A stretch of DNA of 64,000 nucleotides from a bacterium (lineage in GTDB: Bacteria; SAR324; XYD2-FULL-50-16). Below the pieces are notes generated by a model that had not been told where the DNA came from, did no database searches, and saw nothing but the letters and a program-made list of their open reading frames with translations. This document shows positions 2,450 through 58,989 of the stretch, piece by piece. The stretch lies in assembly GCA_032250835.1 (NCBI GenBank), contig JAVVEA010000017.1:9556-73555 (forward strand). Direction: 5' to 3'. The translations under genes were made by a program, and so were the position numbers. Position 1 is the stretch's first letter. Each line of letters starts with the position of its first letter.

Positions 2450-3628
2450 ATGACCCCCAGGAAAAATCCAACCCTCTATTTATTGACGGGCTGTTTCACC
2501 TTGGCCTTTATGGGCAACGTGATGATCTTCTCGGTAGCCAGCTTGGCTGGTTTGCGCTTGGCCCCCAGCACCGGGCTGGCGACTTTGCCGTTGGTGTTGC
2601 ACTTTGTTTCCGGAACGACTTTCAGCTACCCCATGTCCCTTTGGATGCGCCATTTCGGGCGCAAAAGTGGCTTTGCCCTGGGTCTGGTCAGCTGGGGTCT
2701 GGGCGGCTTGATTTCGGCTGGGGCCCTTTATTTATCCAGTTTTTGGCTGCTTTGTTTGGGCGGTGTCGCCACCGGGTTTTTTAACGCTACCATCCCTTAC
2801 TACCGGTTTGCGGCCATGGAAGTGGCCCCGGTTCAGTCCAAGGCGCGGGCCTTGGCGTTGGTGATGAGCGGCGGCGTGGTCAGTTCCCTTTTGGGCCCAG
2901 AAATAGCCAAAGCTACCCGCGCCATCGCTGAGATCGAGTTCACCGGAACCTATTTGAGCCTAACGGGCTTGGCGTTGCTGGGTCTGCTGTTTGCCTCCTT
3001 TATGCGCCTATCCCCCTTACCCAAAGGCCACTACACCGGACGGAGTCTAGGTGAGATTTTTGGGCAGCCCCGCTTTTTAGTGGCCTTAAGCGCGGGCATG
3101 GTCGGGTACGGTGTCATGACCTTTTTGATGGTCACCAGCCCGGTCGCCATGCGTCAAGGCGGATGCACCTTTGACCATGTTGCCTGGGTCATAGAGTGGC
3201 ACATGTTGGGTATGTTTTTACCCAGCTTCTTTACAGGCCGCCTGATTGGTAAATTTGGGCTTTATAAGGTGCTTTCGGCGGGGATTGCCTTCAACTTAAC
3301 GGCGATTGCCTTCGGACTGGCCGGAACCGAGTTGGAGCATTTTTGGCTCGGCATGGCTTGTTTGGGGATTGGCTGGAATTTCCTTTACCTAGGCTCTAGC
3401 GCTTTGTTGACCGAAACCTACCGGCCTGAAGAAACCGCCAGGGTGCAAGGAATCAACGAGACCTTAATCTTGGCTTCCTCGGCGGTCGCCTCGCTCAGTT
3501 CGGGATTGATTTATGAAGTTTTGGGATGGAAAGGCGTCAACTGGGCCGCCTTCCCCTTGGTGTTAACCGTTGCGCTGCTGATTGTCTGGCAGCAGCGCCT
3601 TGAACGCCGAGTTCGGCTGGTTGATTAG
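2450..3628 (+). CDS. MFS-family transporter
   Basis: The 392-aa product has about 12 predicted hydrophobic helices and MFS-like loop motifs. Confidence 0.75.
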   Translation: MTPRKNPTLYLLTGCFTLAFMGNVMIFSVASLAGLRLAPSTGLATLPLVLHFVSGTTFSYPMSLWMRHFGRKSGFALGLVSWGLGGLISAGALYLSSFWLLCLGGVATGFFNATIPYYRFAAMEVAPVQSKARALALVMSGGVVSSLLGPEIAKATRAIAEIEFTGTYLSLTGLALLGLLFASFMRLSPLPKGHYTGRSLGEIFGQPRFLVALSAGMVGYGVMTFLMVTSPVAMRQGGCTFDHVAWVIEWHMLGMFLPSFFTGRLIGKFGLYKVLSAGIAFNLTAIAFGLAGTELEHFWLGMACLGIGWNFLYLGSSALLTETYRPEETARVQGINETLILASSAVASLSSGLIYEVLGWKGVNWAAFPLVLTVALLIVWQQRLERRVRLVD

Positions 3629-4497
3629 CGGTTGGGCACGGCGGCGCAGTCGTAAGGCTGGCCGTCGTCGCTCAAGGTGACCGCGCGGCGGTTTTGAGAA
3701 TAATCCGCCTCGTCTTCACCTAGAGCCAAAGGTTGCTCTTCGCCGCAACTCATGGCGGTTACCTGGGACCGGGGCAACCCAACGACACGCACCAAATAGT
3801 CTTTGACCGACTGGGCACGGCGCTGGCCTAAGGCTAGGTTATAGGCATTGGAGCCGCGCTGATCGCAGTGACCCACCACCAGTAACTTGATTCCGGCGAG
3901 GTCACGCCCGGCGAAGGCTTGGTCCAGCATGCTCCGGTCGGCAGCCGAGACGGCGGATTGGTCGAAATCGAAGTGGACCGAATCGACCTCTAGCGCACCT
4001 AACCCCATGACTTGGTCTTCTGCTAAGGGCTGGTTTGAGTTTTTAACCCCACTAACCAAATCGCGGACTCTAGTAGACTTACCGGTGTAGACCGTATTTT
4101 TTGCGGTGCCATCGGTGATGTAGAGCAACAAGAAGTCGTCCTTTTTGGGGCTGTTTTGGGGGATCTTAAGGAGCGGATTGGAGCGGAACTGGGCAAAGGG
4201 CACTTCCCCTAACAACTCCCCTTTATCGGCTTCGCCCATGCTTTTGGCCCAATATACCTGATAGGCGGTAAATCCAGTGGGGCTTTTCACACCCGATAAG
4301 ACAACATCGCCAGAGATTTGACCAGCGTCTGGGTCTTGGTCTTCAAAGCCAAATTCAACTTGGGTGCCGAAAGCATCTTTCCAGGGCTCGGCTGGCGGGG
4401 CCCCGCCGCAAGAGGAAAGTATCAGGCTGGAAGAGGCTAATAAAAGCAATACCGCCAAAGACGCGGAGAAGTTGGGTCGCATAGAATTATTCTCCAT
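3625..4497 (-). CDS. OmpA-family lipoprotein (C-terminal peptidoglycan-binding OmpA-like domain)
   Basis: It has a signal peptide with lipobox LSSC. The C-terminal motif is VVGHCDQRGSNAYNLALGQRRAQSVKDYL. Confidence 0.8.
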   Translation of the reverse strand: MENNSMRPNFSASLAVLLLLASSSLILSSCGGAPPAEPWKDAFGTQVEFGFEDQDPDAGQISGDVVLSGVKSPTGFTAYQVYWAKSMGEADKGELLGEVPFAQFRSNPLLKIPQNSPKKDDFLLLYITDGTAKNTVYTGKSTRVRDLVSGVKNSNQPLAEDQVMGLGALEVDSVHFDFDQSAVSAADRSMLDQAFAGRDLAGIKLLVVGHCDQRGSNAYNLALGQRRAQSVKDYLVRVVGLPRSQVTAMSCGEEQPLALGEDEADYSQNRRAVTLSDDGQPYDCAAVPNR

Positions 4498-4655
4498 GGG
4501 TTGTGCGATTCAGTCGCCCGCTAAATCATATAACATGTTAGAGCCCTGTCCGGTCCTTTGTCAATTTGTCCTAGGGCTTACGCCGAATCTTTACAACAAA
4601 CCCCTGCCTCGGATATAAAGAAATAGGAAATAGCCCCACTTTTCGGAGAATCCAA

Positions 4656-7100: not shown

Positions 7101-9407
7101 CTAGCGGATGGCCCGCTCAATCAGTTCTGCCGGGAGAATTTCAGAGGGTACGCGGTAGTTCAGCAGCCACAACTGATGGGCCGCTCGGGTGGCACCGATA
7201 TGCAGTAAGTACCTTGAATAGCTGTTGTCTGGATAGTTTATAACATCCACATCCATCAAGATCACATAATCAAACTCTAAGCCCTTTACCTGCCGGAGGT
7301 CCGTAACGTCGATCCCGGCAGTGAAGCTAAAGTTCTGGTCGTCCACCAAGCGCAGATTGGGGATCTCCATCTTCTCTAAGGTCTGGTAATAGTCCTTAGC
7401 CGCCTTGGCGTCGGCGCAAATCAGCGCAATCGAGGCATTGGGCTCTTCTAGACTGAGGTCGTTGAGGCTTTGGGCCAGGTTGCGGCACAGCTCCCCTTGG
7501 TGAGCGAATTGGAACAGGTCCACCCCCGGGCCCTCCTTGACGGCCTTGAAGTCTTTGGTGCTGGCGAGGTCGCCTAAGACCTGCATCGCAAATTCCATGA
7601 TCTGGTGGGTGGCGCGGTAGCTGACCCGTAGATTGCTGACCTCCTGCCCAGGCAAGCCCAAGCTTTCAAAGAGGTACTTCCAGCCCTTAAAGCTATTGTT
7701 TTGGATCATCTGCTGGTTGACATCGCCTGCATAGGTCAGGCTGGTCGGCTCGGCGGCCGCCGAAAGCAAGACCCGGTGTTCGATCAGCGAAAGGTCTTGG
7801 GCCTCGTCCACAAAGAGGTGGTTAAAGGCCAAAGGACCGCGTTCAGGGGCCTCCAAGGGCCCCGCCAAATGGGCCCAGAAATAAAGCAAGATGCTGTCGT
7901 CTTCTAAGTCTAAGTCGGCCTCACCAGCCTCGGCCTTGCCCTGTTCTTTGGCACCCCACCAGTTGTGCCGGGCAATGTATTGCCCCCGCAGCCAGCTGAT
8001 CGCCTCGTCTAGTTGGGCGGGGCTGAATTCATCGGCGGCGTCACGCTCAAAGGCCTTACGCAGCCGTTCAAAATCAGAAAAGAACTCATCCCAAAGCTGC
8101 ACCACCAAGCGCCGTTTATTGCCAAAAAGATCCCCCACCATCGGCTCAACCAGATTCCAGACCATGGCCTTAACTTCGCCTGAATAAGGGAACGTAGCGG
8201 TCTGTTTGGGTTCGGGCCCACAGGCATCGCGCAGCCAGATTAGCTGGTCCACGAAGCTTTTGCTTTCCAAGATTTGGCTAAGCTGCTCGTCTAGATTTTT
8301 GGTCACCGTGATTTGGCTAAGTCCTTCTTCTAAAGCTAGCTTCTTTTCGATCAGGTACCGATCAATCAAATTCAATAAAGCCGGATGTTTTTTAAAGCGG
8401 ATCGCCACCGCCGGGGTTTCTTCGGAGACTTCTTTAGGCAGCAAGTTGCCATAAAGTTTGCGCTTGATGTCCGCCGCCCAAGTTTCAAAGACCGCGATTT
8501 CCACCCCCTTGACCCCCAAGGAGGGCAACACCAAAGAGATGTAATAGGCCAGCGCGCGGTTGAAGACCACGACCATCATCTTATCGGCAGCGAAGCGTTT
8601 GGGGTCCTTGCGGTGCAGCCAAGCGACCCGGTGCAACGCCACGGTGGTCTTGCCGGACCCGGCGGTACCCTGGATTGCCAAGATTCCCGTCGAAGGCTTG
8701 GTGATCAGGTCAAATTGGTCGGGATCGATCAGCGCTGTGATTTCGGGCAACAATTTGTGCCCAGCGCCCATCCCGCTTTTGGCAGTGCGGGCACGTTCGG
8801 CGCGGGTTGCTTGGCCCGAGCCGCCTTTGAGCAGATAGTGGCGGTGGTGGCCCTGCTGCCAGCCCTCTAGCGGGTCTTTGAAGAGATGGACTTGGTGGTC
8901 CTCAATGCGGACCAACTCGCCTTCTTCGACTTTCAACATCCGCTTGACGGCTACCACCCCTTCAGAAAGCCGCCCACCGATCTCTTCTTCATACTCGTCA
9001 CCTTGGAGGTAACGAAAATAGATCACGGCTATGGGCGAGGCCTTCCAGTCGATGATTTGCACGCCCGCTTCTTTGTTACTAAAAACCTGGGTGCCGATGT
9101 AAAGATCTCGGGTCCGCTCTTCTTCTAAGACCAACCGCGCAAAATAGGGGTTTAGTGGATTAAAACCATAGGCATCGGCCAGTTCAGACTGGTTGACCAA
9201 TTGGATCAAAGTGTTGATCTGTTCAGTCAAGTGGGCCACGTCGTCACTCTTGGCCTCGTCTAAAGCCTCTCTTAGCTCAATGATCTGGGCCAGATACTTT
9301 TCCCTGGCATCATCGAAGCGGTCCGCCGAAGAGAGCGTCAACAGGCGCTTCAGGTTAGCTTCTTCTTCACGGATAATGGCGACTTCTTCGGGCGTAAGCT
9401 GGTCCAT
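7101..9407 (-). CDS. UvrD/Rep-superfamily DNA helicase, HelD-like (helicase IV family)
   Basis: It has the Walker A GTAGSGKTTVALHRVAWL, UvrD-like ATP-binding and C-terminal domains, and a HelD-type N-terminal region. The product is 768 aa. Confidence 0.7.
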   Translation of the reverse strand: MDQLTPEEVAIIREEEANLKRLLTLSSADRFDDAREKYLAQIIELREALDEAKSDDVAHLTEQINTLIQLVNQSELADAYGFNPLNPYFARLVLEEERTRDLYIGTQVFSNKEAGVQIIDWKASPIAVIYFRYLQGDEYEEEIGGRLSEGVVAVKRMLKVEEGELVRIEDHQVHLFKDPLEGWQQGHHRHYLLKGGSGQATRAERARTAKSGMGAGHKLLPEITALIDPDQFDLITKPSTGILAIQGTAGSGKTTVALHRVAWLHRKDPKRFAADKMMVVVFNRALAYYISLVLPSLGVKGVEIAVFETWAADIKRKLYGNLLPKEVSEETPAVAIRFKKHPALLNLIDRYLIEKKLALEEGLSQITVTKNLDEQLSQILESKSFVDQLIWLRDACGPEPKQTATFPYSGEVKAMVWNLVEPMVGDLFGNKRRLVVQLWDEFFSDFERLRKAFERDAADEFSPAQLDEAISWLRGQYIARHNWWGAKEQGKAEAGEADLDLEDDSILLYFWAHLAGPLEAPERGPLAFNHLFVDEAQDLSLIEHRVLLSAAAEPTSLTYAGDVNQQMIQNNSFKGWKYLFESLGLPGQEVSNLRVSYRATHQIMEFAMQVLGDLASTKDFKAVKEGPGVDLFQFAHQGELCRNLAQSLNDLSLEEPNASIALICADAKAAKDYYQTLEKMEIPNLRLVDDQNFSFTAGIDVTDLRQVKGLEFDYVILMDVDVINYPDNSYSRYLLHIGATRAAHQLWLLNYRVPSEILPAELIERAIR

Positions 9408-10205: not shown

Positions 10206-10290
10206 GGAACCTCTTGTAGAGTCAAAATCCAGGCGAAAATTGCAACACGGCCCAGGCTCTTTGGCAAGGGGCAGGTAGGCTCAGGGCACA

Positions 10291-10335
10291 AAAAAAGGGA
10301 GAGTCCTCATCATTTGAGTCCTCTCCCTTGGAGCC
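10291..10335 (-). terminator. Rho-independent terminator on the minus strand after sORF G
   Basis: On the minus strand the hairpin AAGGGAGAG...CTCTCCCTT is followed by TTTTTTT. Confidence 0.6.
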
Positions 10336-10405: not shown

Positions 10406-10498
10406 TCAAGCAAAGAGGTTCAGTACGCCGAGGGCCATCAGGGCATAAAGGCCCCATTTGATGGCTTGGATCTTTTGGCTCGATACATAATTAGTCAT
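10406..10498 (-). CDS. sORF G: 30-aa single-TM peptide MTNYVSSQKIQAIKWGLYALMALGVLNLFA (KIQ family)
   Basis: A GGAG RBS lies 8 nt upstream of the ATG. The product has a polar N-terminus and an 18-aa hydrophobic C-terminus. It is a member of the repeated family described in the findings. Confidence 0.6.
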   Translation of the reverse strand: MTNYVSSQKIQAIKWGLYALMALGVLNLFA

Positions 10499-10526: not shown

Positions 10527-10607
10527 TTAAGCTACGTAAGCGACCATCAAGGTCGTGGCCAGAGCGACAAATGCTACGATGGCCTGGGGGATTTTTGCGG
10601 TATCCAT
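10527..10607 (-). CDS. sORF F: 26-aa peptide MDTAKIPQAIVAFVALATTLMVAYVA
   Basis: An AAGGAGA RBS precedes the ATG. The peptide is identical to sORF E, and the DNA differs from E at 3 synonymous sites only. Confidence 0.65.
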   Translation of the reverse strand: MDTAKIPQAIVAFVALATTLMVAYVA

Positions 10608-10643
10608 GTTGGTTCTCCTTAAAGGGTTTAAGTTCGGTGAATT

Positions 10644-10724
10644 TTAAGCTACGTAAGCGACCATCAAGGTCGTGGCCAGGGCGACAAAAGCTACAATGGC
10701 CTGGGGGATTTTTGCGGTATCCAT
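10644..10724 (-). CDS. sORF E: 26-aa peptide MDTAKIPQAIVAFVALATTLMVAYVA
   Basis: An AGGAGA RBS precedes the ATG. It is a paralogue of sORF F. Confidence 0.65.
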   Translation of the reverse strand: MDTAKIPQAIVAFVALATTLMVAYVA

Positions 10725-10792
10725 TTTGGTTCTCCTAGTTAAGTTTAAGTTTAAAGTGGCTTGATTGCCGGTGAGGTTTTTTTGCACCTCAT

Positions 10793-10820
10793 GGGTATAT
10801 CTATTTCACGTGTCGTGCCA
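10793..10820 (-). promoter_or_regulatory. Candidate sigma-54-type promoter (minus-strand TGGCACG-ACAC-GTGAAATAGATATACCC) about 70 nt upstream of sORF E
   Basis: The -24 TGGCACG element is perfect. The -12 position reads GTGA instead of TTGC. The 28-nt block is conserved with 12032..12059. Confidence 0.4.
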
Positions 10821-10882
10821 CGATTAATTAGTGCAATATTATCAACAAGATACAAAAACTCCCTTCCAACCAGAAGATTAAA

Positions 10883-10906
10883 TTCGGAACTAATAATTCC
10901 GACATG
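10883..10906. promoter_or_regulatory. Inverted repeat TCGGAA-N7-TTCCGA (candidate enhancer/UAS for the adjacent EBP)
   Basis: A perfect 6-bp palindrome sits about 80 bp upstream of the 10793..10820 promoter, and the half-site recurs four more times in the region. Confidence 0.4.
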
Positions 10907-10998
10907 AACATCTCTTCAGAATCCCCTGAGCCCAATAGGCACTGATTAACATTTTAAAAACTTTATTTTCAGTAAGTTGCAAAATTTAAAGAACTAGT

Positions 10999-11040
10999 AG
11001 TTCCGTAAATACAAAATCAGAACTTTTAGTTCGGAACGCC
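10999..11040. promoter_or_regulatory. GTTCCG ... GAAC-TTTTA-GTTC-GGAAC palindromic half-sites (second candidate UAS, about 200 bp upstream of the promoter)
   Basis: CGGAAC half-sites in inverted orientation lie in an AT-rich spacer. Confidence 0.35.
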
Positions 11041-11081
11041 CTAAAGCACTTACCATAAGCCCTCGGCACCCCATAAACAAA

Positions 11082-11118
11082 AAAATCCCGTGGAGGCACC
11101 CGAAGGCAACTTCACGGG
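11082..11118 (-). terminator. Rho-independent terminator on the minus strand after sORF D
   Basis: On the minus strand the hairpin CCCGTG...CACGGG is followed by TTTTTTT. Confidence 0.55.
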
Positions 11119-11256
11119 ATCTTTAAGGGGAGTCCATCATCCACATTAAATGCCCGGGGGGACAGACAACGGATTGATGAACTAATAATAAGAGGCCGCA
11201 CCGGGGAACGACCGGCTAGCCTCTTGGGGCCCGCAAAAGCCCCTCCCCAAAAAAGC

Positions 11257-11439
11257 TCAGTATTGCAGGTAACCGATCAACATAGCCCCTAGCAATGTTA
11301 GATAAAAAAACCAAAGAGGCCCATGGCCCCGCTTGCGCCTAAAGATGCGCCGTTGGCCCAATCCTGAAGACCGCTCGAAGGTTTGCGGTGCTTCTTTCAC
11401 TTCCGGTTGGCGCAGCAAGTTGGCCGATTGGATTTTCAT
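11257..11439 (-). CDS. sORF D: 60-aa family member with an Arg-rich insert (MKIQSANLLRQ...RRIFRRKRGHGP...LTLLGAMLIGYLQY)
   Basis: A GGAGAG RBS precedes the ATG. It shares the MKIQ N-terminus and the C-terminal hydrophobic helix with the shorter paralogues. Confidence 0.5.
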   Translation of the reverse strand: MKIQSANLLRQPEVKEAPQTFERSSGLGQRRIFRRKRGHGPLWFFYLTLLGAMLIGYLQY

Positions 11440-11678
11440 AATCTACTCTCCTTTGGGGTGGTTGACCGATGCCCCTCAAAAACATTCGGCTCGACAAGCG
11501 CCCGTAGACGCACAAATGGGGGCTCAAGCCCCCTTGGTTATGTTTCGCCCCCAAGACCTATGCAACACAGGCCAGCAGCCAAGCTCCCGATAGAGAGCCC
11601 AGGACTACCCAATCTATGGGGGTTCTGTTTGTTTTTAATCGATTCACACTAACTCCTTGTGTATGGGTTCGCCCGTCC

Positions 11679-11765
11679 TTAGGCGAAGTAAGCCAAGACG
11701 CCGATGCCGAACAAAGCGTTCAGGGCGACGAAGTATTGCATGATCTTTTCTGCTTGGATTTTCAT
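11679..11765 (-). CDS. sORF C: 28-aa peptide MKIQAEKIMQYFVALNALFGIGVLAYFA
   Basis: A CAGGAGA RBS precedes the ATG. It is identical in protein to sORF B, and the DNA differs at 2 synonymous sites. Confidence 0.65.
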   Translation of the reverse strand: MKIQAEKIMQYFVALNALFGIGVLAYFA

Positions 11766-11796
11766 GTCGGTCTCCTGTTTAGGTCTAAGTTAAGTT

Positions 11797-11883
11797 TTAG
11801 GCGAAGTAAGCCAAAACGCCGATGCCGAACAAAGCGTTCAGAGCGACGAAGTATTGCATGATCTTTTCTGCTTGGATTTTCAT
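11797..11883 (-). CDS. sORF B: 28-aa peptide MKIQAEKIMQYFVALNALFGIGVLAYFA
   Basis: A GGAG RBS lies 7 nt upstream of the ATG. It is a paralogue of sORF C. Confidence 0.65.
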   Translation of the reverse strand: MKIQAEKIMQYFVALNALFGIGVLAYFA

Positions 11884-11908: not shown

Positions 11909-11995
11909 TTATGAGAACAGGGTCAATACCCCGAGACCTAAGAGTACGTTCAAGACGATCAGGTACTGGGGGAGTTTTTTAAATTCGATCTTCAT
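11909..11995 (-). CDS. sORF A: 28-aa peptide MKIEFKKLPQYLIVLNVLLGLGVLTLFS
   Basis: It has the same architecture as the other family members and is the first gene of the A-B-C cluster, but its RBS (AAGAG) is weak. Confidence 0.5.
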   Translation of the reverse strand: MKIEFKKLPQYLIVLNVLLGLGVLTLFS

Positions 11996-12127: not shown

Positions 12128-12152
12128 AATTTTTGATTCCGAAAAATAATGA
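12128..12152. promoter_or_regulatory. TTCCGAA-AAATAAT half-site (candidate UAS, about 80 bp upstream of the promoter)
   Basis: It has the same TTCCGAA/TAATAA elements as 10883..10906. Confidence 0.3.
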
Positions 12153-12224: not shown

Positions 12225-12265
12225 TTTACGGAACTGAAAGGTCCGTTTAAGGCTGGTCGGAACTG
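12225..12265. promoter_or_regulatory. ACGGAAC-N6-GTCCGT imperfect palindrome plus a TCGGAAC half-site (candidate UAS, about 190 bp upstream of the promoter)
   Basis: CGGAAC-type half-sites recur here, and the spacing relative to the promoter mirrors the E-F-G locus. Confidence 0.35.
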
Positions 12266-13702
12266 TTAATTCTCATCGTACTCAGATGAGTACTTAAACT
12301 CCTCTTTTTTAATATGATATTTAGTGAGGAGTTTGTGTAGTTGGCGGGTGGTGATCCCGGCGGTGGCGGCTGAATCGTTGATCTTGCCCTTGTGTCGAGT
12401 CAACAACTGGATCAGGTAGGCCTGCTCCACCTGTTCCACCGCCAGCTGGCGTACCTCAGCCAAAGGCGAGTTAGCGTCCACCACCAGCCCGCCGCGCCCT
12501 TTGTCTTGGGCCAAGAAATCGCCGGGGAGGCTGCTAGGCAGCAGGCAGTTGGTTTTCTCTAAGATATAAGCACGCTCTAAGATATTCTCTAATTCCCGGA
12601 TGTTGCCGGGGAAGCTGTACTTTTGTAGGGCCTTGAAGCTATCGGGGTGGATACTAGTGATCCGGCGGCCATATTCGCCTTCTAGATATTTTAAGAAGTT
12701 GTTGGCCAACAGCGGGATGTCTTCGGCCCGTTCGCGTAAGGGGGGAACGGTGATCGGGAAGACGTTGAGGCGGTAATAGAGGTCTTCGCGGAATTCGCCG
12801 GATTTGGAGCGTTCTAAAAGGTCTTCGTTGGTGGCGGCAATCACCCGCACGTCGGTGTCGAGCATACTTTCACCGCCGACGCGCTGCATCACATGGTCTT
12901 GCAAAACCTGCAACAGCTTGGTCTGGGCGGCGGGGCTGATGGTGCCGATCTCGTCTAAGAAGATAGTCCCGCCTTTGGCGATCTCAAAACGACCCAATTT
13001 GCGCTTTACCGCGCCGGTAAAGGAGCCCTTCTCATGCCCGAATAACTCGGATTCGATTAAGTTGTCGGGGATCGCCCCGCAGTGGACGTGCACGAAGGGC
13101 CCGCCGCGCCGCGCCGAGTTGCGGTGGATCAAACGCGCCAAGACCCCCTTACCCACGCCGGTTTCGCCTAAGAGCAACACCGAAGAGTCCGTCGGGGCCA
13201 CCGAATGGGCCTGTTCGAACATGCTGATCATCACCTGCGAGTTGGTCTTGGTGACCCCCTGCTTGTCGTCATCCCAGACCGACATGCGCAGCATCTCTAA
13301 CTCAGACTGCACCTGGGTGTTGGTCTCTAAGTCTTCGAGAGTGTGCAGCAGGGCCTGCGGGTCGATGGGCATAACCAAATAATGGTTGGCCCCGGACTTG
13401 ACCGCTTGGATCAGGTTGCGGATCTGGTCTTGGGTACTGATCACCACCAGCGAGGCGGTCAGGTAGATTTCGCGGAATTTTTCAAAAACTTTCTGGAACG
13501 CCGCTGTAGAGGTGGTGGCGGCGAATCCGTCTTCCACCAAATAGACCAAGTCGATGAACGTGACCTCATAGCGGTGTTTTTTGAACCGATCGAGGCACTC
13601 ATCTAAGCTCAGCACCGAATCGATCCGGTAGCGGTCGCCGATGGTGAAGGTGATGGCGTCGATGGCGTCTTTCGACGGTGTTAAAGTCAGTACAGAACGC
13701 AT
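12266..13702 (-). CDS. Sigma-54-dependent transcriptional activator (bEBP, NtrC/Fis family) with a degenerate receiver-like N-domain
   Basis: It has an AAA+ sigma-54 interaction domain (GETGVGKG Walker A, GSFTGA = GAFTGA motif) and a C-terminal Fis-type HTH. The N-domain lacks the canonical acidic pocket. Confidence 0.85.
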   Translation of the reverse strand: MRSVLTLTPSKDAIDAITFTIGDRYRIDSVLSLDECLDRFKKHRYEVTFIDLVYLVEDGFAATTSTAAFQKVFEKFREIYLTASLVVISTQDQIRNLIQAVKSGANHYLVMPIDPQALLHTLEDLETNTQVQSELEMLRMSVWDDDKQGVTKTNSQVMISMFEQAHSVAPTDSSVLLLGETGVGKGVLARLIHRNSARRGGPFVHVHCGAIPDNLIESELFGHEKGSFTGAVKRKLGRFEIAKGGTIFLDEIGTISPAAQTKLLQVLQDHVMQRVGGESMLDTDVRVIAATNEDLLERSKSGEFREDLYYRLNVFPITVPPLRERAEDIPLLANNFLKYLEGEYGRRITSIHPDSFKALQKYSFPGNIRELENILERAYILEKTNCLLPSSLPGDFLAQDKGRGGLVVDANSPLAEVRQLAVEQVEQAYLIQLLTRHKGKINDSAATAGITTRQLHKLLTKYHIKKEEFKYSSEYDEN

Positions 13703-13729: not shown

Positions 13730-14701
13730 TTAGGCCCTTGAAGCCTGCCTGTCCATCTCAACTGGCAATCCCGTCCCAAAAGCAAAAACCGGCATCCCCG
13801 CGAAAACCACCGCAGAGTCGGCGTGGCCTAGCAATACGCCTGCTTTTTCGGCCTTGAGTAGCGCCAAGCTGCGCCCCAAAGGATCGTAAATCCGCGCCAA
13901 GGGTTGGCGGGCTTTGACCCAAGCGCCGGGGGCGACGAGGTAACGGATGATCCCGCTGGCCGGGGCCCAGGGGCGGTTCGAGTAGACCAACCTGCGGTCT
14001 AGCTCGCCAATCGGCAAAGCCTCGGCGGCCTTTTGGGGCACCACCATCTCCATTTGCGCCATCAGGGCCCAAATCCTCTCAAGACCCAACCGCACCCACT
14101 GCTCGTTGACCAAATGAGACTCACCTAATTCCAAGGTCAAGGCAGGCACACCGGCATCCAAAAGCGCCGGGGCCAACGCCCCTTCGATCAGTTCAATGTC
14201 TTCGACCGCCAACAAGCCGGTGGCCGCCAGATAGTCGCGGGCCTTTTGGTGGGCCGGCGTTTCGCCGGGCTCGGTTAAGCCGTAGGGGATGCTCCGGTTC
14301 CAGTCGTTGTGCAGGTCTAAAACGAGTTCGGGCTTGCTTTTCATGATCCAATCAAAGACCGCAAAGGCATGCCGACGGCCCAGACTAGCCGCCGGGTTGC
14401 CGGGGAAACAGCGGTTGAGGTCCTCGCCGGTATAAGGCAACTCGCGGCGACGCGCCTCAAAACCCACCGGGTTGACCATCGGCAAGGCCATCACCTTACC
14501 GCAGAGCAGACCCCAGCGCTTGAGTGCTTTAAATAGTTCATGCACCACCGCCATCCCGCCGACCTCGTCGCCATGCATGCAGGCAGTCAGCCAGATGGTC
14601 GGACCAGGCCGCTCGGCGCGGGCCTCCAACAGAGGCAAACGGCGCGATTCAGGCCCCAAACCAGGCAAGCTACGCAGGTGAGAAGCGGCAAAACCGGTCA
14701 T
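13730..14701 (-). CDS. Succinylglutamate desuccinylase/aspartoacylase (AstE/AspA) family zinc hydrolase
   Basis: It carries the Zn-binding motif IWLTACMHGDEVGG and is 323 aa. Confidence 0.7.
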   Translation of the reverse strand: MTGFAASHLRSLPGLGPESRRLPLLEARAERPGPTIWLTACMHGDEVGGMAVVHELFKALKRWGLLCGKVMALPMVNPVGFEARRRELPYTGEDLNRCFPGNPAASLGRRHAFAVFDWIMKSKPELVLDLHNDWNRSIPYGLTEPGETPAHQKARDYLAATGLLAVEDIELIEGALAPALLDAGVPALTLELGESHLVNEQWVRLGLERIWALMAQMEMVVPQKAAEALPIGELDRRLVYSNRPWAPASGIIRYLVAPGAWVKARQPLARIYDPLGRSLALLKAEKAGVLLGHADSAVVFAGMPVFAFGTGLPVEMDRQASRA

Positions 14702-58647: not shown

Positions 58648-58675
58648 TGGCACGGCTCTTGAAATACTAAGAGCA
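58648..58675 (+). promoter_or_regulatory. Candidate sigma-54-type promoter TGGCACG-GCTC-TTGAAAT
   Basis: The -24 element is perfect and the -12 reads TTGA. It lies about 80 nt upstream of the 58741 ORF and is preceded by phased A-tracts. Confidence 0.4.
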
Positions 58676-58740: not shown

Positions 58741-58989
58741 ATGATCGAAAAAACCTTGAAGAAAATCTCAGCTCAATTGGAACTGTTTGCAAAAAACGGC
58801 ATCAGCATCCTGCGCGCCCTGGACATTTTGGAAGCCTCTACCCAAGACGTAGAAGAAATCATCTGTTTGAATACGCTGCGCGAATCTCTGGTTGAAGTAG
58901 CCAGCAGCGACAAGAAGAAAACCAGCAAGAGCTTGGTCAACTTTGCAAAACCCCGGCACGAAGGGCTGCAAGCAGTTGGTATGGCTTAA
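58741..58989 (+). CDS. Hypothetical protein (82 aa)
   Basis: A GGAGAAAG RBS precedes the ATG. Confidence 0.4.
   Translation: MIEKTLKKISAQLELFAKNGISILRALDILEASTQDVEEIICLNTLRESLVEVASSDKKKTSKSLVNFAKPRHEGLQAVGMA

Follow-up and report, generated by a model that had tools for sequence, protein, structure and literature searches.

A 64,000-nucleotide stretch of contig JAVVEA010000017.1 (GenBank assembly GCA_032250835.1), here called the window, from a bacterium of the SAR324 lineage contains eight small open reading frames (sORFs) on its minus strand. These sORFs were arranged in two terminator-bounded operons, A-B-C-D-X60 and F-E-G, with a gene for a sigma-54 enhancer-binding protein (EBP) directly upstream. 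It is quite likely that the sORFs encode translated, selected membrane peptides under sigma-54/EBP control, and the EBP gene with its two sigma-54-type micro-peptide operons would thus constitute a self-contained regulatory module. Small single-helix membrane proteins are a known kind; the unannotated family and its sigma-54/EBP-driven tandem amplification were classified as distinctive. No description of sigma-54-controlled tandem sORF arrays was found in the searchable literature.

Substitution patterns in the duplicated cistrons

Two pairs of sORFs were duplicates that differed only at silent sites. sORFs E (10527..10607, minus strand) and F (10644..10724, minus strand), of 81 nt each, encode one shared 26-amino-acid (aa) peptide, MDTAKIPQAIVAFVALATTLMVAYVA, and differed at ORF positions 30 (ATC/ATT), 36 (GCA/GCT), and 45 (GCT/GCC). 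sORFs B (11797..11883, minus strand) and C (11679..11765, minus strand), of 87 nt each, encode one shared 28-aa peptide, MKIQAEKIMQYFVALNALFGIGVLAYFA, and differed at positions 42 (GCT/GCC) and 69 (GTT/GTC). Each of the five changes was synonymous and at a third position, in exact agreement with a preliminary description of the region, which had reported three and two such differences and identical peptides within each pair. Synonymous changes made up 0.21 to 0.32 of the possible single-base changes in these ORFs, varying with the transition bias, and the neutral probability that five of five differences would be synonymous was 0.0009 at a kappa of 1 and 0.003 at a kappa of 8. Over both pairs, Fisher's test on Nei-Gojobori sites gave a P value of 5e-4. 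The proportion of synonymous differences (pS) was 0.15 for E/F and 0.115 for B/C, and the proportion of nonsynonymous differences (pN) was 0 in both. At a pS of 0.12 to 0.15, neutral evolution would have left approximately 15 replacement changes, and none was observed. The copies are therefore not too young to be informative, which answers the worry raised with the preliminary description that they might have arisen too recently, and the comparison of dN and dS that it had proposed for the paralogues came out as it had anticipated.

In a six-frame check of both pairs, only the claimed frame was open and without amino acid differences. Antisense ORFs on the plus strand (e.g., 11704-11793) were considered and rejected; they had in-frame stops across the repeat and unlike ends in the two copies, and their synonymy merely follows from third-position alignment with the sense frame. 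Similarity between copies spanned the Shine-Dalgarno (SD) stretch and the ORF and ended at the stop codon. The SD stretch of each pair carried one mismatch per approximately 10 to 12 nt, and approximately 20 nt of the 117/118-nt period, outside the SD and ORF, were unalignable between copies. Either the spacers evolve fast or the coding units have been homogenized, and the unit of SD and ORF is preserved under both. The deeper paralogues A (11909..11995, minus strand) and B, with a pS of 0.81 and a pN of 0.29, are saturated at silent but not at replacement sites.

Related loci and array expansion

Ten EBP loci were examined, of which six carried the module and four had no arrays. The closest database relatives of the window EBP were 85% identical (Logan contigs), followed by proteins of 51 to 57% identity, several of them labeled SAR324 cluster. 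In the closest relative (contigs L004 and L005), GGAAC-N5-GTTCC palindromes, a TGGCAC-ATCTA-TTGAAA element, and an SD precede the peptide MKLEIAKIPQYLVALNALIGVGILTYFA, an orthologue or close paralogue of A (omega, 0.11). Both of these short-read contigs break inside repeated cistrons. The rest of the array was reached, via the neighboring tetratricopeptide repeat (TPR) gene, on a contig from the same sample (L015), which contained, in order, a B-like copy, an extra 26-aa copy, orthologues of D and X60, a single orthologue of E/F, an orthologue of G, a terminator, and the TPR gene.

The preliminary description had called for a comparison with orthologous loci, where frameshifts or nonsense changes would have counted against it; lengths of 28, 29, 60, 26, and 30 aa were kept across L005 and L015, with no frameshift or stop. 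The B/C orthologue (L015 90-176, plus strand) was 89% identical to B in amino acids, with an omega of 0.05 to 0.07. Values for the others were 0.35 for D (320-409, 29 aa, ATG start), 0.17 for X60 (528-710, 60 aa, 66% identical), 0.24 to 0.31 for the single E/F orthologue (1249-1329, 26 aa), and 0.45 for G (1370-1462, 30 aa), compared to 0.09 for the EBP gene and 0.21 for the TPR gene. These omega values were calculated by the Nei-Gojobori method from a small set of orthologues with dS of approximately 1 to 1.8, near saturation. The single E/F orthologue indicates that the E/F duplication is specific to the lineage of the window.

Among the more distant loci, L012 (EBP, 53% identical) contained ten cistrons for an identical 23-aa peptide, MKFDLANLAQPIVAFVAIAMFSI, followed by an eleventh, diverged copy. 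The ten copies had five variable sense-codon columns, all third-position and synonymous (P = 0.0005 to 0.003), and a TAA/TAG stop variant. First and second positions had no nucleotide diversity (0), third positions had 0.062, and the spacers, which differed by substitutions and 4-nt indels, had 0.090. At L009 (EBP, 55%), an array divergent from the EBP gene follows a TGGCAC-GGTAA-GTGAAA element and has a 107-nt period; its four identical 26-aa cistrons (4253-4654; MKFDLANLAQPIVAFVLVVNIAMYTF) had one synonymous difference, and two more copies were diverged. A second contig (L010), whose EBP (protein P0008) is identical to that of L009, had two of the identical 26-aa copies rather than four, reflecting either real copy number variation or assembly collapse of the 107-nt repeat. 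A Q-x-IVAFV core was common to the L009 and L012 peptides and window peptides E/F. L007 (EBP, 56%) had TGGCAC-GGTTG-ATGAAA, three tandem 21-aa cistrons, and one 31-aa cistron, then a terminator; L006 (EBP, 57%; a SAR324 metagenome-assembled genome [MAG]) had TGGCAC-ATTGC-GTGAAA with 21-aa and 35-aa cistrons. Public gene calls at L012 consisted of two 37-aa genes antisense to the array (3406-3619, plus strand), and at L007 (7746-7883, plus strand) the array was represented by copy 1 alone, lengthened at its N terminus to 45 aa.

Near-identical copies in four lineages together showed 11 synonymous and 2 replacement differences, compared to a neutral expectation of approximately 1:3. By lineage, the synonymous-to-replacement counts were 5:0 in the window, 5:0 in L012, 1:0 in L009, and 0:2 in L007. 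The proposal that purifying selection acts on a translated peptide is supported by the five-of-five silent differences, the silent-site saturation of A versus B, the orthologue omega values of 0.05 to 0.45, and the ten-copy array of L012. Tandem amplification was recurrent in at least four lineages. Some of the copy number differences, such as 4 versus 2, could be assembly artifacts. Dosage amplification of identical peptides, also suggested in the preliminary description, is plausible and fits these recurrent, independent expansions.

Operon anatomy, promoters, and genomic setting

In addition to the duplicates, operon 1 encodes A (28 aa, MKIEFKKLPQYLIVLNVLLGLGVLTLFS), D (11558..11647, minus strand; 29 aa, MNRLKTNRTPIDWVVLGSLSGAWLLACVA, with a GTG start), and, as its last cistron, X60 (11257..11439, minus strand; 60 aa), which has an MKIQ N terminus, a basic linker, and a hydrophobic C-terminal helix. 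Operon 2 ends with G (10406..10498, minus strand; 30 aa, MTNYVSSQKIQAIKWGLYALMALGVLNLFA). By the ORF listing, the two operons encode sORFs and nothing else. A clear SD was found 5 to 9 nt upstream of seven of the eight sORFs (GGAG for B, AGGAG for C, AAGGAG for D, and AGGAGA for E, F, and G among them), and A had only a weak one (AAGAG). GC content at third positions (GC3) exceeded that at second positions (GC2) in seven sORFs, the exception being D (0.47 versus 0.50), a pattern expected of coding sequence here, given that GC3 in the long genes of this genome is 0.60 to 0.74. Peptides A, B, D, E, and G and the L005 peptide aligned without internal gaps, with the consensus M-x(1-7)-K-I-P-Q-x-x-V-A-L-N-A-L-x-G-x-G-V-L-A-Y-F-A, and thus form one family. 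X60, left out of this alignment, has its MKIQ start and C-terminal helix in common with the family. A profile built from the six sequences found no further family copies in the window.

Operon 1 ends in an intrinsic terminator at 11078..11124 (minus strand), a G+C-rich hairpin of 12 bp or more followed by U7 (-24.4 kcal/mol, z = -3.26), and operon 2 ends in one at 10290..10329 (minus strand), with a 9-bp G+C-rich stem followed by U7 (-25 kcal/mol, z = -3.28). Intercistronic spacers were 25 to 118 nt long. Those at 10608-10643 and 11766-11796, like the stretch at 10725-10760, were A/C rich and G poor, with a short repeated motif (AACTTAAAC); the L007 and L012 spacers consisted of CAACC/CAATC units varying by 4-nt indels. 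Slippage may drive the evolution of these spacers, which may be unstructured and serve to couple or enhance translation. Between D and X60, which are 118 nt apart, 11518-11533 forms a perfect G+C hairpin (GGGGGCTCAAGCCCCC) without a U-tract on the sense strand (unremarkable folding z, -1.3), which may have a part in RNA processing or stability.

The EBP gene (12266..13702, minus strand) encodes 478 aa. Its product matched Pfam families PF00158 (AAA+ sigma-54 interaction domain; 2.9e-66) and PF25601, with Response_reg below its cutoff; a match to HTH_8 (PF02954), a Fis-type helix-turn-helix (HTH), was just below its own. NCBIfam gave sub-threshold, generic EBP matches only, and PADLOC matched the protein only through its generic AAA+/HTH part. 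A Walker A motif, GETGVGK, was found at residue 179 and a GSFTGA loop at residue 226. The receiver-like residues 1 to 130 had no acidic DD pocket and carried a replacement (LVMP) at the conserved Lys, so this pseudo-receiver domain is probably not phosphorylated. Both features were common to all ten aligned EBP homologues, whether or not they bear arrays.

A promoter-like element precedes each operon: P1 (12043..12059, minus strand; TGGCAC-AGCTT-GTGAAA) lies in front of A, and P2 (10804..10820, minus strand; TGGCAC-GACAC-GTGAAA) lies in front of F. The form TGGCAC-N5-KTGAAA had three exact matches and one match with a single mismatch in the 64 kb, compared to 0.59 expected at one mismatch or fewer, and two of the three exact matches were P1 and P2. 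The same form also precedes sORFs in L005, L006, L007, L009, and L012, whose EBPs are 53 to 85% identical to that of the window. Against the consensus TGGCAC-N5-TTGCW, the -24 element and the spacing were canonical, and the -12 element was TGA rather than TGC, a variant conserved in the same five loci. No exact TGGCAC-N5-TTGCW site was found in the window. The third exact match (TGGCAC-GGCTC-TTGAAA, 58648-58664, plus strand) lies approximately 75 nt upstream of an SD-preceded ORF (58741-58989, plus strand) that encodes 82 aa unrelated to the sORF peptides. From the lack of a TTGCW-type site and this third TGAAA-type match, the sigma-54 of this lineage may prefer TGA(A) over TGC at -12. A small hairpin of the TGAGGTG-N6-CACCTCA type was seen approximately 29 to 38 nt past the start of the -24 element in the window (10772-10791, minus strand), in L007 (approximately 7776-7792), and in the L012 5' untranslated region; transcripts are predicted to begin there, and the hairpin may be a 5' stem-loop that stabilizes them.

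Six promoters had palindromes of the form (C)GGAA-N5-7-TTCC(G) at approximately -80 to -92 and -183 to -225. Upstream of P1, a distal palindrome (ACGGACCTTTCAGTTCCGT; 12228..12246, minus strand) lies approximately 187 nt from the -24 element and is a candidate activator site, and a proximal site with a TCGGAAT half-site (12129..12147, minus strand) lies approximately 88 nt from it. As a palindrome, the proximal site is weaker than that of P2, and its position (-80 to -92) is conserved in all loci. The candidate activator sites of P2 span 10884..11032 (minus strand) and consist of TCGGAATTATTAGTTCCGA (10884-10902), GAACTACTAGTTC (10991-11003), and GAACTAAAAGTTC (11020-11032), approximately 82, 183, and 212 nt upstream of the -24 element, respectively. 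Distal palindromes (approximately -183 to -225) were thus present at P2 as well, and also in L005, L009, and L012. Three features expected of a sigma-54/EBP regulon, namely -24/-12 promoter spacing, an AAA+ protein with a GAFTGA-type loop and an HTH, and upstream sites, were found.

Pfam scans of the flanks covered 2.4 to 10.2 kb and 12.3 to 19.3 kb of the window. The genes there were unrelated housekeeping and envelope genes (UvrD-like helicase, ParA/Mrp, deformylase, RNase HII, OmpA-like, MFS, MscS-like, and TPR/BamD-like). Directly upstream of the EBP gene lies a gene of the AstE/AspA family (succinylglutamate desuccinylase/aspartoacylase, zinc carboxypeptidase fold; 13730-14701, minus strand), and the 85% relative has such a gene in the same place and orientation (L004 1514-2485). 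The window TPR protein had a 100% database match (P0122, from an NCBI MAG), and the best match of the window EBP was only 85%; the source record may lack an annotation for the window EBP, give it another start, or call it a pseudogene. Exact look-ups of peptide G and of the window TPR protein returned no record.

Database searches with the peptides yielded no family. Pfam, NCBIfam, and PADLOC gave nothing above any family cutoff, and at an E value of 1 or lower in Pfam-A and NCBIfam, three of the six peptide sequences had sub-threshold chance matches. A concatenated-peptide query of the protein database had no match. An HMMER profile of the peptides run against 1.84 billion representative proteins had one match (P0121), which was rejected as a spurious, repeat-derived protein. 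Rfam had no match in the region. A scan of a genome collection with the EBP returned only generic EBPs at 31 to 41% identity, and metagenome scans by peptide alignment and with a 44-nt degenerate back-translated pattern gave no confirmed relatives.

Proposed function and competing explanations

The peptides share a layout of a short, polar, usually net-positive N-terminal cap, often with K-I-P-Q, followed by an uncharged run of 15 to 23 residues that reaches the C terminus, in which a Tyr or Phe often lies two to four residues before the last. The hydrophobic moment was 0.04 to 0.27 for the C-terminal run and 0.06 to 0.22 over the full length; the moments of reference peptides were 0.09 to 0.17 for KdpF, 0.40 to 0.44 for PSM-alpha1 and PSM-alpha3, and 0.35 for TisB. 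Given the polar cap and the uncharged, low-moment C-terminal helix, the peptides are most likely single transmembrane helices with the N terminus inside rather than surface-active amphipathic peptides. Polar residues within the helix (Asn in A/B, TT in E/F, and G-x-G) would favor helix-helix association. In these respects the peptides resemble KdpF, AcrZ, CydX, MgrB, and YohP/YncL-type proteins, being of 21 to 60 aa with one uncharged, low-moment helix; as in those small inner membrane proteins, the N terminus is polar and positive, a signal peptidase site is absent, and gene callers miss the genes. They differ in lacking sequence or profile similarity to curated families and in forming stand-alone operons with their own EBP rather than sitting in the operon of a partner. 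The proteins named are single copy, whereas the present cistrons occur in 2 to 10 identical tandem copies. Head-to-tail arrays of identical small hydrophobic genes are also known from gvpA of cyanobacteria and hli of Prochlorococcus, with selection, concerted evolution, and a dosage logic, but those proteins have 35 to 70 aa, known folds and functions, and no similarity to the window peptides.

A sequence of events can be proposed. A signal would act on the atypical receiver domain of the EBP, which, as its conserved motifs suggest, would bind (C)GGAA-N5-7-TTCC(G) approximately 80 to 90 and 185 to 225 nt upstream of both promoters and use ATP to open sigma-54 RNA polymerase complexes at TGGCAC-N5-GTGAAA. 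By their sequence anatomy, A-B-C-D-X60 and F-E-G would be transcribed as two polycistronic, terminator-bounded transcripts. Sequence and evolution alike indicate that each cistron is translated independently from its own SD, so that one transcript would yield several peptides, and the duplicated cistrons (B = C and E = F) would raise the dose of one exact peptide. The peptides, judging by composition, would then enter the cytoplasmic membrane as single helices with the N terminus inside. What follows is speculative: the peptides might act in bulk in the membrane upon a specific cue, by altering a membrane property or by saturating an abundant membrane partner. Such a bulk or stoichiometric role is favored by cistron amplification of up to tenfold, by the peptides being the sole products of gated promoters, and by the lack of a conserved partner nearby; a trace-level regulatory role is less likely.

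Several points weigh against this interpretation. The bulk membrane role is a guess, and a tentative one, and no partner gene was conserved beside the module across the loci compared. Translation and membrane insertion are both read from sequence, and sigma-54 dependence would follow from motifs whose -12 TGA is noncanonical. Between species, D, E, G, and X60 are only 39 to 66% identical, and length and hydrophobicity may be the main targets of constraint. The B/C orthologue of L015 has ACG where ATG is expected (AAAAGGAGAATCC-ACG-AAG...), which could reflect a noncanonical start, use of the internal Met9 for initiation, a start lost very recently, or a read error. At L007, both coding differences among the three near-identical 21-aa copies were replacements (H5N and P20T), so constraint on the exact peptide sequence is not absolute. 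Peptide arrays were absent from L008, L011, L013, and L014 (EBPs of 51 to 53% identity), where sigma-54-like promoters, if found, drive genes of 90 to 129 aa; the association is therefore limited to a subclade rather than extending to all pseudo-receiver EBPs. Finally, the diverged terminal copies in L009 and L012 and the variation in copy number suggest unequal crossing-over and gene conversion as a second force that probably helps to keep the interior copies alike. Concerted evolution of this kind weakens the identity of copies as evidence but does not weaken the synonymous-only pattern.

Among the alternatives, it is possible, though unlikely, that the peptides are membrane-damaging toxins, like TisB, HokB, or holins, that the very tight off state of sigma-54 promoters silences until the EBP fires, for instance upon stress or phage attack, and that then, in a burst of pore-forming or depolarizing peptide, cause growth arrest, dormancy, or lysis. 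Hydrophobic peptides of 21 to 30 aa would suit such a role, their in-helix polar residues (N, T, S, and G-x-G) could drive oligomerization, and they are the sole products of tightly gated promoters. Multicopy paralogy is typical of type I toxins, and the window peptides resemble TisB, Hok, Ibs, Ldr, and ShoB in being small (<60 aa), hydrophobic, multicopy, and unannotated. However, neither an antisense promoter-like site nor an antisense or divergent RNA was detected within the arrays, Rfam included, and the cistrons are polycistronic with exposed, strong SDs rather than translationally locked monocistrons with a sequestered ribosome-binding site. The helices are nonamphipathic, with moments below the 0.35 of TisB; PADLOC matched no peptide, and the EBP only generically; and it is difficult to see why a toxin would be amplified tenfold.

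Export is improbable, whether of leaderless signals of the SHP/Rgg kind or of surface-active or antimicrobial peptides like psm-alpha and leaderless bacteriocins, with amplification serving yield. Tandem leaderless genes for 21 to 30 aa do stand beside a dedicated transcription factor, and the charged N terminus and hydrophobic C terminus resemble SHP precursors. The psm-alpha genes of Staphylococcus aureus are likewise polycistronic and leaderless (approximately 20 to 25 aa), with their own ribosome-binding sites and one dedicated activator. Those peptides, in contrast, are amphipathic (moment of approximately 0.4 versus 0.27 or less here), driven by AgrA and sigma-70, and exported by the Pmt ABC transporter; no sequence similarity links the two, and the window host belongs to a Gram-negative-type, uncultured lineage. 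No ABC transporter, processing protease, or immunity gene was found in the scanned flanks, and none was conserved at the other loci. The adjoining regulator is a sigma-54 EBP rather than an Agr-type regulator or the RRNPP receptor that would adjoin SHP/Rgg or other RRNPP pheromones. Flp or type IV pilins are not indicated either, as the processing motif (G/XXXXEY or G/F-T-L-I-E) is absent from the peptides and Pfam gave no Flp or pilin match.

Precursors of ribosomally synthesized and posttranslationally modified peptides (RiPPs), which are often tandemly multiplied, are a very unlikely identity for these short, multicopy ORFs. In their favor, the zinc deacylase/carboxypeptidase-fold gene of the AstE/AspA family directly precedes the EBP gene in the window and L004, but an AstE-like gene is absent from L006, L007, L009, and L012. 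Nor do the peptides have a leader/core organization or a cleavage motif, and no radical-SAM, YcaO, lanthionine synthetase, ATP-grasp, or similar gene lies beside the array-bearing loci.

It is also highly improbable that the repeats are noncoding, with fortuitous ORFs in paralogous sigma-54-dependent small RNAs. The architecture, an NtrC-type EBP with sigma-54 promoters and several short, paralogous, terminator-bounded transcripts under a dosage logic, is that of LuxO and Qrr1-5 in Vibrio and of Pxr in Myxococcus, whose products are noncoding RNAs. Here, however, 11 of the 13 coding differences between near-identical copies in four lineages were synonymous, seven of eight cistrons had a clear SD, ORF lengths were conserved across orthologues, and Rfam had no match; moreover, an amino acid identity of 39 to 66% with saturated silent sites means that the RNA sequence itself is not conserved. 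It is scarcely credible that the silent-only pattern is a chance one, left by gene conversion or a very recent duplication of cistrons whose product is not selected: although the window differences number only five and the similarity ends abruptly at the SD and stop codon, as gene conversion tracts can, the window probability was 0.001 to 0.003, the pattern recurred independently in L012, the replacement changes predicted from pS were not seen, and orthologue omega was below 0.5 throughout.

The favored account, of selected membrane peptides under EBP control, has several implications. These genes were established from sequence alone, through silent-only paralogue differences, conserved ORF length, and a dedicated regulator. 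Peptides of <30 aa fall below gene-caller thresholds, and public calls for these loci omit them, lengthen them, or give antisense ORFs instead. The design, a sigma-54 activator with amplified micro-peptide cistrons as its only nearby targets, is conserved and apparently undescribed. Possibly, though with less than even confidence, it represents a SAR324-like system in which a pseudo-receiver sigma-54 activator fires micro-peptide arrays of up to ten or more identical 21- to 30-aa cistrons. If so, the arrays would expand and contract by unequal recombination and would release one membrane peptide in a burst that is switch-like and tunable by dose; its role, such as stress-triggered membrane remodeling, gating, or shutdown, would lie outside the known small-protein classes. 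The module would then offer an entry point to small-membrane-protein biology in an uncultured, ecologically widespread lineage and a natural example of gene dosage tuned by array expansion.

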